A DNA stretch of 64,000 nt. It comes from Escherichia coli. GTDB lineage: Bacteria; Pseudomonadota; Gammaproteobacteria; Enterobacterales; Enterobacteriaceae. Below are positions 2,769-60,405 of this stretch, piece after piece; position 1 is the stretch's first letter; the number at the start of each line of letters is the position of its first letter. Below the pieces are notes generated by a model that made no database searches, was not told the origin of the DNA, and worked only from the letters and a program-made list of their open reading frames with translations. The position numbers and the translations under genes are program-made. The stretch lies in assembly GCA_025336725.1 (NCBI GenBank), contig GCA_025336725.1_3647.1. One strand, 5' to 3'.

Positions 2769-3320
2769 TTACTGACCGCTGTCTGTAACCGCTTGACCAG
2801 CATCGGGTGAAGGGAAATGTGTGGTTACTTCAGCCTTTATTCCCTGGAGATCTTCAAAAGCCCCAATGTCTGTCTCAACAAACCTTACGTTAAATGTCAA
2901 CATTACAGTGGCTCTATTTTCATACGTCTGCTTATTCAACGGCACCCTTTGAGGTGAGATTGTTGAATTGTTAGAGTAGGCAAAGCACGATCCCAGAGGG
3001 AAATACTTGTCATAAAACATTGGGAGATTTATTGCTTGCAGCACTCTACTCAGTGCAGCATATGCCCTGCCACGATAAGCTGTTAACAGATAAGTAACAG
3101 TGTAACTATGGGTGACGTAAGCATTACCCTCCGCATCTTGAAACTCATTGTCTTCCCAAGTGGTAGGATTGATCGCCAATGTTTGTAAAAGTACAAACTC
3201 ACCTTCCGGCTTCGGTATGGTAGAACTTTCTGCCAGAACCACAGTTCTTCCTGTAGCAACCTTGACGAGTTTAGCAATAGTGGTTTCAAGATCAGAAAAA
3301 ACTTTTTCGAAAGCTTCCAT
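2769..3320 (-). CDS. Hypothetical virion protein (tail completion/neck region)
   Basis: 183-aa track ORF packed between head and tail genes. Confidence 0.3.
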   Translation of the reverse strand: MEAFEKVFSDLETTIAKLVKVATGRTVVLAESSTIPKPEGEFVLLQTLAINPTTWEDNEFQDAEGNAYVTHSYTVTYLLTAYRGRAYAALSRVLQAINLPMFYDKYFPLGSCFAYSNNSTISPQRVPLNKQTYENRATVMLTFNVRFVETDIGAFEDLQGIKAEVTTHFPSPDAGQAVTDSGQ

Positions 3321-13088: not shown

Positions 13089-13165
13089 TGGTCTCCACGG
13101 AGTGATTCGAACACTCGACCTCCTGATCCCAAATCAGGCGCTCTACCAAGCTGAGCTACGCGGAG
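13089..13165 (-). tRNA. tRNA-Pro (anticodon TGG)
   Basis: Hand-folded cloverleaf: acceptor CTCCGCG/CGTGGAG, anticodon stem CCTGA/TCAGG with loop TTTGGGA, T-loop TTCGAAT, encoded CCA. Confidence 0.65.
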
Positions 13166-13174
13166 TTTATAATT

Positions 13175-13249
13175 TGGTGGCCCTGGGTGGAATTGAACCA
13201 CCGTCTGGCGATTATGAGTCGCTTGCTTGAACCTTCCAGCTACAGGGCC
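13175..13249 (-). tRNA. tRNA-Met (anticodon CAT; could be Ile-lysidine)
   Basis: Acceptor GGCCCTG/CAGGGCC, anticodon loop CTCATAA, T-loop TTCAATT, encoded CCA. Confidence 0.6.
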
Positions 13250-13250
13250 A

Positions 13251-13326
13251 TGGTGCTGATGGCAGGACTCGAACCTGCAACCTATTGATTACAAATCAAT
13301 TGCACTACCAATTGTGCTACATCAGC
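13251..13326 (-). tRNA. tRNA-Thr (anticodon TGT)
   Basis: Acceptor GCTGATG/CATCAGC, anticodon stem ATTGA/TCAAT with loop TTTGTAA, T-arm GCAGG-TTCGAGT-CCTGC, CCA. Confidence 0.6.
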
Positions 13327-13331
13327 AAAAA

Positions 13332-13430
13332 GGTGCTAGGCGATGGAATCGAACCACCTATGTATTCAACGACTACTTCGTCTATTTTCAGGATTAAAAA
13401 TCCTCGCCCTTGCCAAAGGGCCTACCTAGC
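13332..13430 (-). tRNA. Atypical tRNA-like element (~99 nt), identity unresolved
   Basis: Good acceptor (GCTAGGT/GCCTAGC), D-arm and T-arm (GGTGG-TTCGATT-CCATC); only plausible anticodon hairpin AGGA-TTTTTAA-TCCT (TTT) plus a ~30-nt variable region with its own hairpin. Confidence 0.4.
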
Positions 13431-13528
13431 ATATTATGCGAATCATGCTGCTAGTCGGCGATGACGACTGTAACATTTGTTAATCCGGTTCTGCTTCCGG
13501 AGCTCGCTTAATTTCATGATCCACGATC

Positions 13529-13618
13529 TGGCAGAGAGTAATGGAATCGAACCATCATCGAGGATATCTCAACGGGACGGTTTTCAAGACCGCTTGAGCA
13601 CCATGCTCCCTACTCTCT
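13529..13618 (-). tRNA. tRNA-Ser (anticodon TGA), long variable arm
   Basis: Acceptor AGAGAGT/ACTCTCT, anticodon stem GCGGT/ACCGT with loop CTTGAAA, ~20-nt variable arm, T-loop TTCGATT, CCA. Confidence 0.6.
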
Positions 13619-13730
13619 TTTTATAAACAACACTGATAATGACACTGATTTTCGAACAGTTAGTGACTAGTATAAACGACGATAAACATCAATGTCATTA
13701 TCTATGTTATTTATCACAAATATGTAATTT

Positions 13731-13817
13731 TGGTGGGGAGTGATGGAGTCGAACCACCCGAGTCGCAATGACAATAGATTTACAGTCTACACCGCTACCC
13801 CTACGGTATAACTCCCC
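13731..13817 (-). tRNA. tRNA-Tyr (anticodon GTA), long variable arm
   Basis: Acceptor GGGGAGT/ACTCCCC, anticodon stem GTAGA/TCTAT with loop CTGTAAA, ~15-nt variable arm, T-loop TTCGACT, CCA. Confidence 0.6.
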
Positions 13818-13821
13818 GATT

Positions 13822-13896
13822 TGGCACCCCGTACTGGACTCGAACCAGTGTCAACGGCTTAGAAGGCCGCTGCTTTATCCACTAAGCTAACAGGGC
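13822..13896 (-). tRNA. tRNA-Arg (anticodon TCT)
   Basis: Anticodon stem GCGGC/GCCGT with loop CTTCTAA, T-loop TTCGAGT, CCA; acceptor contains G-U wobbles. Confidence 0.55.
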
Positions 13897-14187: not shown

Positions 14188-14288
14188 CNNNNNNNNNNNN
14201 NNNNNNNNNNNNNNNNNNNNNNNNNNNNNNNNNNNNNNNNNNNNNNNNNNNNNNNNNNNNNNNNNNNNNNNNNNNNNNNNNNNNNNNN
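14188..14288. other. Assembly gap (run of N)
   Basis: About 100 consecutive N characters in the sequence. Confidence 0.95.
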
Positions 14289-55191: not shown

Positions 55192-55497
55192 ATGGCTAAA
55201 TCTAAAGTTGAACTGTTCACCTCTCTTCCTTCTGACACTGCAGAGCGTGATCGCCTCCGTAAAACAATTGAAGAGCTGGTAGAACTTCAGCTTCAGATTA
55301 AAGATCTGAAAGATGCTATTAAGGATATCATCCTTGTTGAGAAGCAGGATCACCTGTATTCCCCTAAATTCATCAAATCTCTGGTGGCTACCGAGTTCGA
55401 TATTCGCTATGAGGCTGAAAAGCGTCGAGCTAAAATCGAAGAAGAGGTTGAACACATGTCTGAGGCAGACATTCTGTTCAAACGCTCTGTAGAATAA
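55192..55497 (+). CDS. Hypothetical coiled-coil protein
   Basis: 101-aa track ORF followed by a strong terminator. Confidence 0.35.
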   Translation: MAKSKVELFTSLPSDTAERDRLRKTIEELVELQLQIKDLKDAIKDIILVEKQDHLYSPKFIKSLVATEFDIRYEAEKRRAKIEEEVEHMSEADILFKRSVE

Positions 55498-56427: not shown

Positions 56428-56821
56428 CCACACATCGTTTGGAGAATATGGAATACACAATTAAAACATTGTCAGAGGTTTTGGTGGTGATCCTGATGAT
56501 CATCACGTCCATAGCGGCTGTTGCCGGAATACTAACGGGTGGAACATGACCAACACACATGCATCTGAAGAGACATCTGAAGAAGTGACCGTAGAGGAAA
56601 ACTTAGACCCTGAGGCTGATGACCTGACGTGGGAAGACATCTTAGACATCTGGTTCTCTATCCTGCCTGAGCACGAAGAGTTCAGAGGTGGCAGACTATG
56701 AAGCACCGAGCCCACATAAGTTTATCATGCTAAAGCATGGCCTGAAGAGGCAAACGTATATAAATTCCTGCGCATTGGAACGTATAACCCTGTTCACACT
56801 CTCATTCCCAGAGGAGATTTC

Positions 56822-57037
56822 ATGAAGATAGAAATATTTGGTGGAGCTGACAACACTCGTGGCCTGATTTACCTTGAATTTGATGAATCTTACCTCCCAG
56901 AGGTGTTAAACATGGACGCTATTGCAGAATCCCTTAATGTAGACCCTAAAGATCTCTACTCAGGTGCTGAAATTGATGGTTGGGAAGAGACTATGAACAT
57001 TGATTTCAGTGAATCAGGTGATGAACCTCTGGACTGA
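56822..57037 (+). CDS. Small acidic hypothetical protein (MKIEIF-type)
   Basis: 71-aa track ORF, last plus-strand gene before the ORF-poor region. Confidence 0.35.
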   Translation: MKIEIFGGADNTRGLIYLEFDESYLPEVLNMDAIAESLNVDPKDLYSGAEIDGWEETMNIDFSESGDEPLD

Positions 57038-57385
57038 CACACAATTAGCTGCTCAGCTAAGGTTCTGTAGGCACCTATAACATCTTCCAACTAAATTTCC
57101 TACCAACACAGTTACTTACCTACCACACATGACTGTTTGCTTGTTTAGTGAGCAGTCATCCCTTGACATTCTTGCCTATCATGATAAAATTAAGTTCTTC
57201 TCTTTTCTTTTACCGAGTAATTCGGGTTTTCTGTTCTCTTCGGTTTGAAGGGGTATGGAGATACACCTGAGTGAACAGGGTGAACAACCGAACATTTGGC
57301 TATGGCATTAGCATGGCGAAGCGGACGGGTGACGAAAGAGGGGCCGGAGGACACCAGTCACTGCCATATAGTATATGGGTGATAA

Positions 57386-57927
57386 CCTGAAGAGTCTGAA
57401 TAAGTGTTTAAGTACCAGTCAGAGGAAAGGGTGAATGGTAGACGAAGGGGGAGGGGGGTTTCTTATATCTTTAATTTGTATACTTTATATACACTTGTAA
57501 ACCAATTCAATTGTAATTTGTTTACCACACAAAGTGGATAGAGACAAATATCACCTATTAAACTTGAATTATTTATAGAAAATACCACAACACCTCTTAA
57601 GTCTTTGATTTTACACACAAATCTTACAAATATCCTACCTCCATATTTAACATACTTGTAACATACTCCATATCCTACCTGCCTGATCAATTTTACTCCC
57701 ATCACATCCCCACATTCCCCTGTCTGTATTACTCCCCGCCCCGCTTGGGAGTCCTGTCATATCTGGCTTTCCGGCAAATATCACACCCACAAATATCATC
57801 ACCTGAAGAGGGTTTCATCCCATAGTATATACCTTGCCTGAAGAGCGCTTCATACACCACCTAAATTTTTTAATTGACCCCTCCCCGCCGCCGGAGAGGT
57901 TGGCTTTTCCCACACAGGCCTGAAGAG
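57386..57927 (+). repeat. Four same-strand copies of CCTGAAGAG
   Basis: Copies at ~57386, 57802, 57837, 57919; two preceded by ATAGTATAT. Confidence 0.5.
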
Positions 57928-58464
57928 TCAGCCAGAAATATCTCAAGGGGTCCGGTTATGCCACGATTCTGTGCTTGTCCTACAGGAGTGCTGCCCTGTC
58001 AGGAGCCGGTAGCGACTGGAGTGCTGCCAGGCGGACGGAATGGGAATACTTCTCATTCTTATAACGATTCTCAAATATCATGGCAGTGAGGCAAATTAAT
58101 AGGCCAGGCCGTTCACACAGTGGCACAACATTTGCAACCTATCTTGGGTGGGGGAATGAGAATACCTATCATTGTGAGAATAGTTATCATTACGGGCAAT
58201 TTAACATAATACCCATTATGCGCACCACTGGCGATACATACAGGGATTGATAACATGTGACACTGTTTACGCATATAACAATTGCATTTCTTACTATTTG
58301 TGGGGGATATAGTTAGCAGCCAATAGATTAGATATTAACCTGCAGCTATCCAGCCATTTAGACGTCTAAACGCCCACACAACAAGGATTATACATACATT
58401 CCTGAATGTAAACAGGGCCGCAAAAATGCTACCATACCAGATTGTAAATTTTTCATGCAGCACT

Positions 58465-58560
58465 TGACAAAGAGGAGAAAAACTTGTCTGACATGCTGTG
58501 ACATAATGGTGACATACTGGGCATGCTGTGACACAACTGACACGATTGACATAATTGACA
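58465..58560 (+). repeat. Phased array of TGACA(T) motifs
   Basis: Eight TGACA at ~58465, 58489, 58499, 58510, 58529, 58538, 58547, 58556; last four 9 bp apart; GCATGCTGTGACA occurs twice. Confidence 0.5.
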
Positions 58561-58683
58561 TGCATGACTGTTTACGCTCTCACTATTCCCGCTATTACTA
58601 TTCACTCCCTTTACTGTTTACATTTCCAATAATCTACATGCATAATAGTTTACATAGCTAACTATTTACACAGAGATGATAAG

Positions 58684-58924
58684 CCATGACATTCGTTTGC
58701 ATGACAATAATCACACTGATTATAATTAGCATGACATAATATAAAAGCAGGGCAACTATTAGAAGATCTATAGTTGCCTTGCTTATTATGTCATGATTAA
58801 CTGAATATAAGGCAACTATGATCTGATTAATAGTTTGCAGACAAACTATCACGGGGGTGATGGTTACTGCTTTTATATTATGTCGCGACTCCGTCGCGCC
58901 ATGCCATTCGTTTGCATAGTTGCC
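58684..58924. repeat. Direct repeat plus long imperfect palindrome
   Basis: CCATG(A/C)CATTCGTTTGCAT at ~58684 and ~58899; inverted arms CATGACATAATA...GGCAACTAT / ATAGTTGCC...ATTATGTCATG about an AGATCT centre (~58730-58795). Confidence 0.5.
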
Positions 58925-59530
58925 TTATTGTTACAGGTAAAACAATTGCATTGTTAATTGTTTCTTATCTTTTTCTTAGTCATCTAATGATTTCAGTCAG
59001 GACAGTAATGTACAGTAACCATTAGACGACTAAAGATTTCTCTGTTTATGATAACTCACCGTGATAATTTCGGACGGTTTACGAAAAATGTTGACACCCT
59101 GGCTGATTTATGTTATGCAGTTTACACGAATAATTATTTTATGCAGGTATTGACTATTCCGTTATTCTGTGGTTGGAATAAATACTTAGCAGGCTATAGA
59201 ATGGTGAACGTACGTAAATTCTGAGATTTGGCGGCTATAGTTATACTCGATTTTTCACGTAGAACACGGCTTTGTGGTTGTGTAAGTGTATGACTTATAA
59301 AGATTTTTAGTTATTGACAAGATATTGAAGATGTGCATCAGGTTAAATTTTGTGCAATAGCGGCATTACGTGCAATTTTGGGAGAGAAAACGGGTAAAAA
59401 TGGCATTGCTACCACATAATGAAAGATTATGCAATAGTTATTTTATATGTATATTTGTACAGTGTGCGGGATTGATGGCTCGTCAATTATTCCACTTGCC
59501 AGGCGGGGCCGTTGTGGTAGGAAGAGAGCA

Positions 59531-59559
59531 GACAAAAAGAAAGGGGCTTAGTGGGCCCC
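59531..59559 (-). terminator. Intrinsic terminator for the minus-strand block
   Basis: Minus-strand GGGGC-ccactaa-GCCCC followed by TTTCTTTTTGT. Confidence 0.45.
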
Positions 59560-59714
59560 TTGATAATTCAGTTAAAAAATTATAATGATTCGTATATTTC
59601 AAAAATCCGATTTGCCAGGCGTCGTTACGGAATCTAAATTTTTCTTCACGTTTGATCATAAGATCTTTATAGCCGTATTTCCTTAAGCACTTCATTAACT
59701 TTATGGCGGCATAC

Positions 59715-60002
59715 TTACATTATCTTGAGCGTCACCAATAAACTTGTTGCTATGTGGTGCATTGCTTTAATTTCTTCTTCCAGGACCAGGGCAACTACGC
59801 GGACCGGATCAAGCTGATATGCGGTAACATCAATGCGGCATTGTAGACGGCTTTTAACGTCTGCCACCGGATATACTGCAACCTCTTCCCCGTCAACATT
59901 GACGATAATTAGTTTACCATCGATTTCGAATCCTTTCGCCGCCGGACCGTGACAAAAAGCGTTATCAAAACTGTATGCCGGATTATCAGATTCAATGTTC
60001 AT
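59715..60002 (-). CDS. Hypothetical protein
   Basis: 95-aa track ORF. Confidence 0.3.
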   Translation of the reverse strand: MNIESDNPAYSFDNAFCHGPAAKGFEIDGKLIIVNVDGEEVAVYPVADVKSRLQCRIDVTAYQLDPVRVVALVLEEEIKAMHHIATSLLVTLKIM

Positions 60003-60156
60003 GGCGTTTTTACCTCTCAGTTAATTTTCTTACAGCTTCCCTTCAAAAAAGAATATATCAAAACTGCCGATCCCTGTCAACCAGGGATAGCATAATTTTT
60101 ATGTGATCAAGGGGCTGTTTGCCCCTGACCATGTAACTTGTTGTATTATTTATTGC

Positions 60157-60405
60157 TCATCCAGCTTTCCCAAGCTGCCTGATAATCTGCCTCACTGCGG
60201 CGGATCTCTTCTTGCTCTTCAAGCCGGATCTCTTCTTCAAAGGTAAAGGATATCGGATTTTTGGTCTGGCGTAACATCCAATCATCTTTTTTACGGGTAA
60301 AGATCTTATATGCTTTCTCGCAAACCTCCTTTTTACTACCTTTTTGGACTTCAGCGCTTTGTAGGCCATGTACTGAACTAGTTTGAGCTGATCAAGGCGT
60401 TTCAT
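60157..60405 (-). CDS. Small basic hypothetical protein
   Basis: 82 aa, Lys/Arg-rich. Confidence 0.3.
   Translation of the reverse strand: MKRLDQLKLVQYMAYKALKSKKVVKRRFARKHIRSLPVKKMIGCYARPKIRYPLPLKKRSGLKSKKRSAAVRQIIRQLGKAG

Follow-up and report, generated by a model that had tools for sequence, protein, structure and literature searches.

The 64,000-nucleotide (nt) stretch of DNA considered here (contig GCA_025336725.1_3647.1, from an assembly assigned to Escherichia coli; hereafter, the window) belongs to an rV5-like myovirus, a coliphage of the genus Vequintavirus, and about 120 phage records match it with approximately 90% identity. Close to the physical ends of the phage genome, we identified a compound palindrome of about 155 nt (58732 to 58885) bracketed by direct repeats, which, judging from sequence comparison, represents, for Vequintavirus, a cis element that is conserved in the subfamily Vequintavirinae. 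The explanation that we favor, with a probability of roughly 0.4, is that this cis element acts as a folded single strand in DNA transactions related to the genome ends, such as priming and regeneration of the terminal repeat. The features of the element and of the DNA on its left side are the following.

58030 to 58488, no strand assigned: direct terminal repeat (DTR) of 459 bp, placed by homology to phages Gotham, YN3, and EdH4.
58489 to 58682, plus strand: hypervariable short repeats (TGACAY with a spacing of about 9 to 10 bp and WGTTTACR), separating the DTR edge from the first direct repeat.
58683 to 58702, plus strand: direct repeat copy 1, GCCATGACATTCGTTTGCAT, from the repeat search.
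58703 to 58731, plus strand: variable spacer, with TATAAT at 58721 to 58726 in this lineage.
58732 to 58750, plus strand: 5' arm of the outer stem, with a perfect 18-nt core (58733 to 58750), invariant in the 18 relatives that carry the core.
58751 to 58838, plus strand: inner long hairpin made of GGCAACTAT / ATAGTTGCC boxes (58751 to 58759, 58770 to 58778, 58811 to 58819, and 58830 to 58838), with its apical loop at 58782 to 58808 and with the local AGATCT palindrome included, from the repeat search and the fold.
58765 to 58768 and 58820 to 58823: two GATC sites in the inner long hairpin, which pair with each other in the fold.
58843 to 58865, plus strand: second inner hairpin, AAACTATCAC GGGG GTGATGGTT, from the fold.
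58867 to 58885, plus strand: 3' arm of the outer stem, CTGCTTTTATATTATGTC plus G, from the repeat search and the fold.
58882 to 58900, plus strand: GC-rich motif GTCGCGACTCCGTCGCGCC with the small hairpin GCGAC-TCC-GTCGC, from sequence reading and lineage comparison.
58898 to 58917, plus strand: direct repeat copy 2, GCCATGCCATTCGTTTGCAT, from the repeat search.
58916 to 58928, minus strand: fifth box, ATAGTTGCC (58916 to 58924), and its flank, a perfect 14-nt complement of 58807 to 58820.

A previous sequence-only reading of the window had described a 19-bp direct repeat with copies about 215 bp apart, an imperfect palindrome centered on AGATCT, and further repeat copies, and all of these are present. 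The direct repeat, whose consensus is GCCATG(A/C)CATTCGTTTGCAT, spans 20 nt, with 19 of the 20 positions identical and 215 bp from start to start, and with up to 3 mismatches allowed it occurs twice in the window, compared to 0.05 copies expected. The arms around AGATCT (58764 to 58769) lie at 58730 to 58759 and 58770 to 58795, and the further copies are the GGCAACTAT and ATAGTTGCC boxes, the former with four exact occurrences in the window, all inside the 174 bp from 58751 to 58924 and two per strand, where about 0.5 would be expected in 64 kb. That reading had missed the strongest feature, the perfect 18-nt inverted repeat GACATAATATAAAAGCAG, which joins 58733 to 58750 with 58867 to 58884 across 116 nt; the AGATCT palindrome represents an alternative, imperfect local pairing inside this larger nested structure. 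In fact, the three longest long-range perfect inverted repeats of the window (18, 14, and 12 nt) are all found in the element. The pairings of the inner long hairpin are those of GGCAACTAT (58751) with ATAGTTTGC (58830) and of ATAGTTGCCTT (58770) with AAGGCAACTAT (58809), and the second inner hairpin is followed by a GTTA(C) junction motif that is common to other genera. The window contains the element once, and nearly all of the 120 records have it at a single place.

When the 168-nt segment from 58725 to 58892 is folded, a 19-bp outer stem (58732 to 58750 with 58867 to 58885) encloses two branches, and the fold is far more stable than those of shuffled sequences with RNA or DNA parameters and on either strand (z = -9.2 to -9.8). 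The plus strand, which has its 5' side at the terminal repeat and its 3' side toward the genome interior, reaches -69.9 kcal/mol versus -61.1 kcal/mol for the minus strand with RNA parameters and -39.6 versus -34.9 kcal/mol with DNA parameters. The free energy of the plus strand is likewise the lower one in 10 of 10 lineages, which are related and do not amount to ten independent trials. Furthermore, the consensus fold of an alignment of Mydovirus and Seunavirus sequences gives -84.0 kcal/mol on the plus strand and -73.3 kcal/mol on the minus strand, and alignment cells paired by G.U only number 29 on the former and 2 on the latter, a count biased to the plus strand since the structure was predicted on it. 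This asymmetry points to a folded single strand, of DNA or RNA, over a symmetric cruciform or duplex protein sites, and a strand-specific, conserved secondary structure of this sort is what characterizes the single-strand initiation (ssi) signals of the phage G4 type. A terminator scan also flagged 58844 to 58865 followed by ACTGCTTTTA on the plus strand; its T-run is weak and belongs to the outer stem.

Evidence that the pairing itself is under selection comes from other genera. The DTR of the Klebsiella phage KPP-1 (Mydovirus) measures 514 bp and was classified as T7 type by PhageTerm (PMC9862379). We found it to be placed in a convergent gap poor in open reading frames (ORFs), of the same kind as that of the window described below; its right edge, AGCTTGACAAGGAGAGAGAATTGTGT, resembles CACTTGACAAAGAGGAGAAAAACTTGTC of the window, and the two DTRs have a significant 37-nt block in common (z = 8.2). 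About 310 bp to the right of its DTR, KPP-1 presents a perfect 21-nt inverted repeat with the arms 164 nt apart and with hairpins enclosed, whose fold has a free energy of -98 kcal/mol (z = -10.9), and PVP-SE1 (Seunavirus) shows the same layout. Further lineages were recovered from IMG/VR with the DTR block ATTTAACATAAWACNCNTTATRCGCAC. In most lineages with enough downstream sequence, namely, KPP-1, PVP-SE1, a 149,273-bp CR3-like and a 148,842-bp Hena1-like IMG/VR contig, and four further IMG/VR lineages, a perfect inverted repeat of 18 to 22 nt with a gap of 71 to 204 nt lies a few hundred nt rightward; two loci, on contigs of 262 kb and 44 kb, showed no inverted repeat of 12 nt or longer. 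The distance from the DTR edge to the inverted repeat is about 180 to 400 nt in the four lineages with a placeable edge. The arms differ among lineages with a family resemblance (GACATAATATAAAAGCAG, GACACAATAACACGGGAG, GACCAATAGAAAACAGGT, and others), GTTAC stands before the 3' arm in each of the ten lineages, and a GTCGC..(T)CGCGCC motif follows that arm in most of the lineages compared. In several lineages, a second copy of an 18- to 25-nt segment comes next, as the counterpart of direct repeat copy 2. A hairpin-forming inverted repeat near the DTR in the concatemer junction is a feature of at least six genera. Other searches for relatives were set aside: a scan with a DTR-edge pattern gave mostly chance matches, yet recovered Mydovirus-like loci; only 2 of the 24 matches of the pattern GGCAACTAT-N6-14-ATAGTTGCC in IMG/VR were relatives, the rest being due to chance; and a regulator-like gene (55192 to 55497) failed as a cross-genus landmark, since it lies 36 kb from the DTR in KPP-1.

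In an alignment of six Mydovirus and Seunavirus sequences, the 19-bp outer stem is 99% paired, and compensatory double changes occur at 8 base pairs. None of 500 shuffles reached the observed covariation score, and sliding the pairing register destroyed the signal. These paired changes bear directly on a different account, in which a dimeric, sequence-specific protein would bind the duplex at an array of sites formed by the GGCAACTAT-N10-ATAGTTGCC palindromes and the 20-bp direct repeats. The protein could be a phage regulator, the small terminase subunit, or a replication initiator, for instance, and the hairpin potential would be a by-product of symmetric sites. Four exact GGCAACTAT boxes together with degenerate copies, two palindromic pairs with 10-bp spacers, and the concentration of core variation in the spacer around AGATCT are in line with such an array, as are the clustering of WGTTTACR, CCTGAAGAG, and TGACAY in the same terminal non-coding DNA and the presence of a small regulator-like gene about 3 kb upstream. 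However, in the other genera the inner palindromes and the outer stem each change in their two halves at once, as in the replacement of GATAA/TTATC by GCGAT/TCGC, so that pairing is kept and a fixed recognition sequence would be destroyed; moreover, duplex binding does not explain the strand asymmetry, half-sites do not explain perfect 18-nt arms 116 nt apart, and we regard this account as doubtful.

Within the genus, the element was examined in an alignment of the window with 19 relatives, across which the core (58731 to 58935) is nearly invariant. Of 120 database records, 118 carry the core, with 95 to 99% identity except for a small rV5-like subgroup with an insertion of about 33 bp; in the alignment, this 33-nt insertion, present in rV5 and C7, enters the long hairpin at its apical tip, after 58785. 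Unpaired positions vary more often (9 of 38) than paired ones (15 of 130). The adjoining repeat zone (58489 to 58682) has an identity of 0.34 to 0.63 to the 19 relatives, with many indels and copy number changes. Direct repeat copy 1 is kept in 17 of the 19 relatives despite variable flanks, copy 2 is invariant, and phage V18 has lost copy 1 and kept the core; in FV3, copy 1 is fused with copy 2. In the rV5/Murica lineage, the spacer (58703 to 58731) is replaced by a terminator-like hairpin, and TATAAT is absent. A minus-strand ORF at 58658 to 58852 was rejected as a protein-coding gene, its length varying in relatives from 15 to 68 amino acids (aa), with differing C termini. A metagenome scan with an 18-mer of the inner hairpin returned three Vequintavirus contigs only, with invariant arms and no covariation within the genus.

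The sequence-only reading had named absence of the repeats from otherwise collinear relatives as a finding that would count against it, and this was observed in phage FV3 alone. The FV3 sequence ...GATATGATAA-GCCATGACATTCGTTTGCAT-AGTTGCCTTATTG... contains one repeat copy, the 215-bp unit being precisely lost at a junction at 2090 to 2130, and its close relative EPFV3-03/2025 keeps the complete unit at 2894 to 3141. It follows that FV3 represents a derived, repeat-mediated deletion and not an empty insertion site. We also find it hardly credible that the unit is a selfish or neutral insertion, i.e., a miniature inverted-repeat transposable element with a target-site duplication, or repeat-prone junk near the end. 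A 215-bp unit bracketed by 20-bp direct repeats and precisely absent from FV3 does look like an insertion with its empty site, and its inverted repeats resemble terminal ones. However, besides the derived state of FV3, the unit is present in a single copy per genome and in none of 5,426 E. coli genomes, the arms of its outer stem do not abut the direct repeats, from which they lie 30 and 13 nt away, its position is conserved with compensatory evolution in at least six genera, and its identity of 95 to 99% stands beside hypervariable flanks.

The position of the element relates it to the genome ends. It is located in a 2.5-kb ORF-free gap between two convergent gene blocks, with the last plus-strand gene (rV5 gp158 homologue) ending at 57037 on the left and the first minus-strand gene (gp159 homologue) ending at about 59583 on the right, followed by a good terminator at 59561 to 59541. 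The rV5 gp159 homologue (139 aa; 59583 to 60002, minus strand) looks interrupted: read from 60002, it meets a stop at 59715 after 95 aa, and similarity runs on to 59583, partly in another frame, as in a pseudogene or a sequencing error. The equivalent stretch of rV5 (104013 to 106618) was labelled "non-coding" in the genome paper, with no function assigned, and the terminators expected there were not found (PMC3606486).

Phage Gotham is reported to have 459-bp terminal repeats and one fixed packaging start (PMC7471380). Its repeat_region annotations (1 to 459 and 136567 to 137025) map by blastn to 58030 to 58488 of the window, and the records of YN3 and EdH4, independently of Gotham, have their first position at 58030 and their last at 58488 and contain 458/459-bp repeats. 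Thus, the window is a permuted, concatemer-like view that holds the DTR in a single copy, and the physical genome ends would be placed, by homology only, at 58030 (left) and 58488 (right); it is likewise by homology only that the short exact DTRs expected beside an element of a T7-type end are present. The first direct repeat begins about 195 bp past the right DTR edge, in the left-terminal non-coding DNA, and the compound palindrome lies about 245 bp to the right of that edge and about 700 bp from the left one. No Chi sites were found near the genome ends.

Given this location, a pause or stop signal for DNA ejection, analogous to that of T5, was also considered; genome entry would be halted by it after a few hundred bp. 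The T5 injection stop region is comparable in being a large untranslated left-end region of a virulent coliphage, with direct and inverted repeats, palindromes, and a layout conserved among relatives. However, it lies inside a terminal repeat of about 10 kb, contains 8 ordered DnaA boxes, and comes after pre-early genes that are expressed; the element of the window is outside the DTR, no DnaA box is present, and there are no genes between the genome end and the element, so that a first-step transfer would express nothing. To our knowledge, two-step ejection is not known for these phages, and we consider an ejection signal very unlikely.

The sequence-only reading had itself proposed a double-stranded cruciform, as at a replication origin or a resolution site. 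Part of this idea holds, in that the repeats are non-random and their pairing is selected, as the compensatory changes in other genera indicate; what does not hold is the form, since the main pairing is the 58732 to 58750/58867 to 58885 stem with its nested boxes instead of the local imperfect AGATCT palindrome, and the better folding of the plus strand in every lineage fits single-stranded DNA or RNA over a symmetric duplex. The palindromic symmetry is strong, the setting is AT rich, and an AT-rich layout with neighboring iteron-like repeats recalls lambda-type origins. However, the TGACAY/GTTTAC repeats at 58489 to 58682 vary in number and sequence among genomes that are about 90% identical, which led us to reject a lambda-like iteron origin, and there is no DnaA box (TTWTNCACA) between 57618 and 64000. 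In rV5, a change of GC/AT skew at 104425 to 105475 falls in the same gap, although its authors ascribe it to the switch in transcription direction (PMC3606486). Genomes with direct terminal repeats instead of hairpin telomeres need no resolution step, and FV3 is viable without the element. On balance, we find a cruciform of this kind unlikely.

A folded single strand in end-related DNA transactions can be connected with the replication of such genomes as follows. Phages with short exact terminal repeats form concatemers with one repeat copy per junction, and the repeat is recopied before or during packaging. In T7, the terminal repeat must be duplicated before packaging, repeat-containing hairpin DNA is seen in infection, and both strand-displacement and primase-initiated models have been put forward (PMC4281155, citing Molineux 2006 and Chung and Hinkle 1990); the genome of rV5 includes a gene for a primase/helicase that has podovirus homologues (PMC3606486). 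The active form of the element would most likely be plus-strand DNA exposed during replication or concatemer maturation, which could serve as a priming or assembly signal. The geometry suits a priming role: synthesis that begins at the left repeat edge would displace the plus strand, which folds best and would also be the lagging-strand template for forks moving rightward from the end. The element lies 3' of the DTR on this strand, and a primer laid down at or beside it could be extended leftward across the DTR to the genome end. Such a leftward strand might provide the step needed to regenerate the second DTR copy or, equally, the lagging-strand start from a near-end origin. The direct repeats may be conserved flanking boxes that, as a side effect, render the element deletable, as in FV3; that deletion suggests that the role of the element is helpful rather than indispensable. 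In its most specific form, the proposal would be that the strand-specific stem-loop directs priming on the displaced plus strand, so that the DTR is recopied during concatemer maturation, in Vequintavirinae and perhaps in other myoviruses with short DTRs; taken as a whole, this version is speculative, and we believe it to be improbable.

Several points weigh against a folded DNA strand with an end-related function. Direct alignment of the window element with that of KPP-1 picks the equivalent right arm and the GC motif without reaching significance (z = 0.8), and homology across genera is therefore argued from position, architecture, and short common motifs. The outer stem never varies within Vequintavirus, and covariation comes from other genera only; the kinship of the ten lineages likewise weakens the strand asymmetry. 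The element is strongly conserved, but it is not strictly essential if the deletion in FV3 is genuine and did not arise in assembly or cloning; nor does it coincide with a cleavage site, the right DTR edge being 245 bp away and the left one about 700 bp. We infer the single-stranded exposure, the priming, and the packaging link alike, and G.T wobble pairs favor RNA at least as much as DNA.

This last point leads to the main rival explanation, namely, that the element is a structured non-coding RNA gene of about 150 to 200 nt on the plus strand. Such an RNA would work in trans or in cis, and its tasks could include taking over the host, countering defence, or pausing or processing transcripts near the genome end. 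Compensatory changes together with one-sided G.U changes on the plus strand are a classic RNA signature, the better folding of that strand in 10 of 10 lineages agrees with it, and dispensability in FV3 would suit an accessory RNA; an RNA accounts for these G.U changes and for the dispensability no less well than the folded DNA strand does. Moreover, TATAAT stands just upstream in the lineage of the window, and in CR3-like lineages TTGAC(T/A) is found about 30 nt upstream, while the second repeat copy is followed by a terminator-like hairpin with a T-run. On the other hand, cmscan of 56500 to 60200 on both strands retrieved no Rfam family at E <= 1, scans for sigma-70 promoters found none conserved upstream of the element across lineages, and in the rV5/Murica lineage the terminator-like hairpin lies directly before the element. 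Where promoter-like boxes do occur, the predicted start is inside the 5' arm, and in the window no clear intrinsic terminator follows the element. We consider an RNA gene possible, though not probable.

As regards known systems, the junction of T7-group concatemers is similar in its linear genome with short exact DTRs (T7 type in KPP-1), in having cis elements in the adjoining non-coding DNA, and in the hairpin-forming sequence implicated in duplicating the terminal repeat (the hairpin intermediate of Chung and Hinkle 1990; PMC4281155). There is, however, no sequence similarity, the host RNA polymerase takes the place of a phage polymerase, and what we describe is a multi-branched palindrome of about 155 nt to the right of the repeat, dispensable in FV3 and with a putative packaging role. 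The ssi signals (the phage G4 complementary-strand origin, primosome assembly sites, and plasmid ssi and single-strand origins [sso]) are also strand-specific stem-loops of about 70 to 200 nt with compensatory changes, and a likeness to them would explain the plus-strand bias and the position 3' of the DNA to be copied. Different from the element, they act on circular single-stranded or rolling-circle replicons and are recognized by host DnaG or PriA; no sequence or Rfam match links them to the element, for which priming is putative. In the inverted terminal repeat (ITR) of adeno-associated virus (AAV) and other parvoviruses, an outer palindrome around two internal ones forms a branched hairpin of about 145 to 155 nt that acts in replicating the linear genome, and the nested design is alike. 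However, the ITR is at the very terminus, self-primes from its 3' end, and needs the Rep nickase, whereas the element is internal (about 700 bp from the end) in a double-stranded genome with direct repeats, and no Rep-like gene is known.

In the literature on Vequintavirus and Vequintavirinae, we found no description of the element, only the "non-coding" label and scattered reports of terminal repeats. The general kind, a structured cis signal beside a phage end, is known; the architecture, the subfamily-wide conservation, and the strand bias are new. Phages of the rV5 type have been isolated widely and serve in the typing and therapy of pathogenic E. coli. The 2.5-kb region of rV5, without interpretation since 2013, is now seen to span the physical genome ends, and many records of the genus begin at arbitrary points even though it is known where the true ends lie. 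A structure that the subfamily has conserved, with compensatory evolution, offers a mutable target for studying how ends are replicated or packaged, or a new phage non-coding RNA; if plus-strand priming were true, it would supply a defined cis element for the long-unsolved regeneration of short terminal repeats. In practice, engineering or cloning of these genomes carries a risk of losing the element through its flanking 20-bp repeats.

Other features of the terminal region were noticed. The right edge of the DTR bears the motif CTTGACAArGAG..GArAA..TGT, common to Vequintavirus and Mydovirus and with a close variant in Seunavirus, and the internal DTR block ATTTAACATAAWACNCNTTATRCGCAC is common to at least six lineages. 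A promoter-like TTGTCA-18-TACAAT (58441 to 58470, minus strand) points leftward into the DTR and uses the invariant TTGACA of its right edge, similar boxes being found in KPP-1 and PVP-SE1. The stretches just outside the DTR edges (57950 to 58025 and 58490 to 58730) are the most variable of the non-coding DNA, with an identity of 0.34 to 0.56 and copy number changes of short repeats. Six of the nine copies of WGTTTACR in the window fall within 58264 to 59126, i.e., the DTR and the left-end non-coding DNA, and similar CAGTTTACAC motifs are present in KPP-1 and PVP-SE1. The nonamer CCTGAAGAG occurs 8 times in the window versus 1.1 expected; five copies, all on the plus strand, are in 56741 to 57927, the last of them about 100 bp to the left of the DTR edge, and CCTGAAG(A/T)G recurs in the equivalent right-end non-coding DNA of PVP-SE1 and KPP-1. 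It is possible to hypothesize that this nonamer is a protein-binding or packaging-recognition motif.

In the right-terminal non-coding DNA, the segment from 57125 to 57450 is about 100% identical across the 19 aligned relatives. It opens with a near-consensus promoter, TTGACA-16-TGnTAAAAT (57163 to 57190, plus strand), followed by a small hairpin and a T-run at 57213 to 57225; it has no ORF and no Rfam hit, and its RNA fold gives a z of -2.45, so that we list it as a candidate non-coding RNA. Finally, a run of 100 N (masked or unresolved) occupies 14189 to 14288, shortly after the tRNA cluster at 13089 to 13896.

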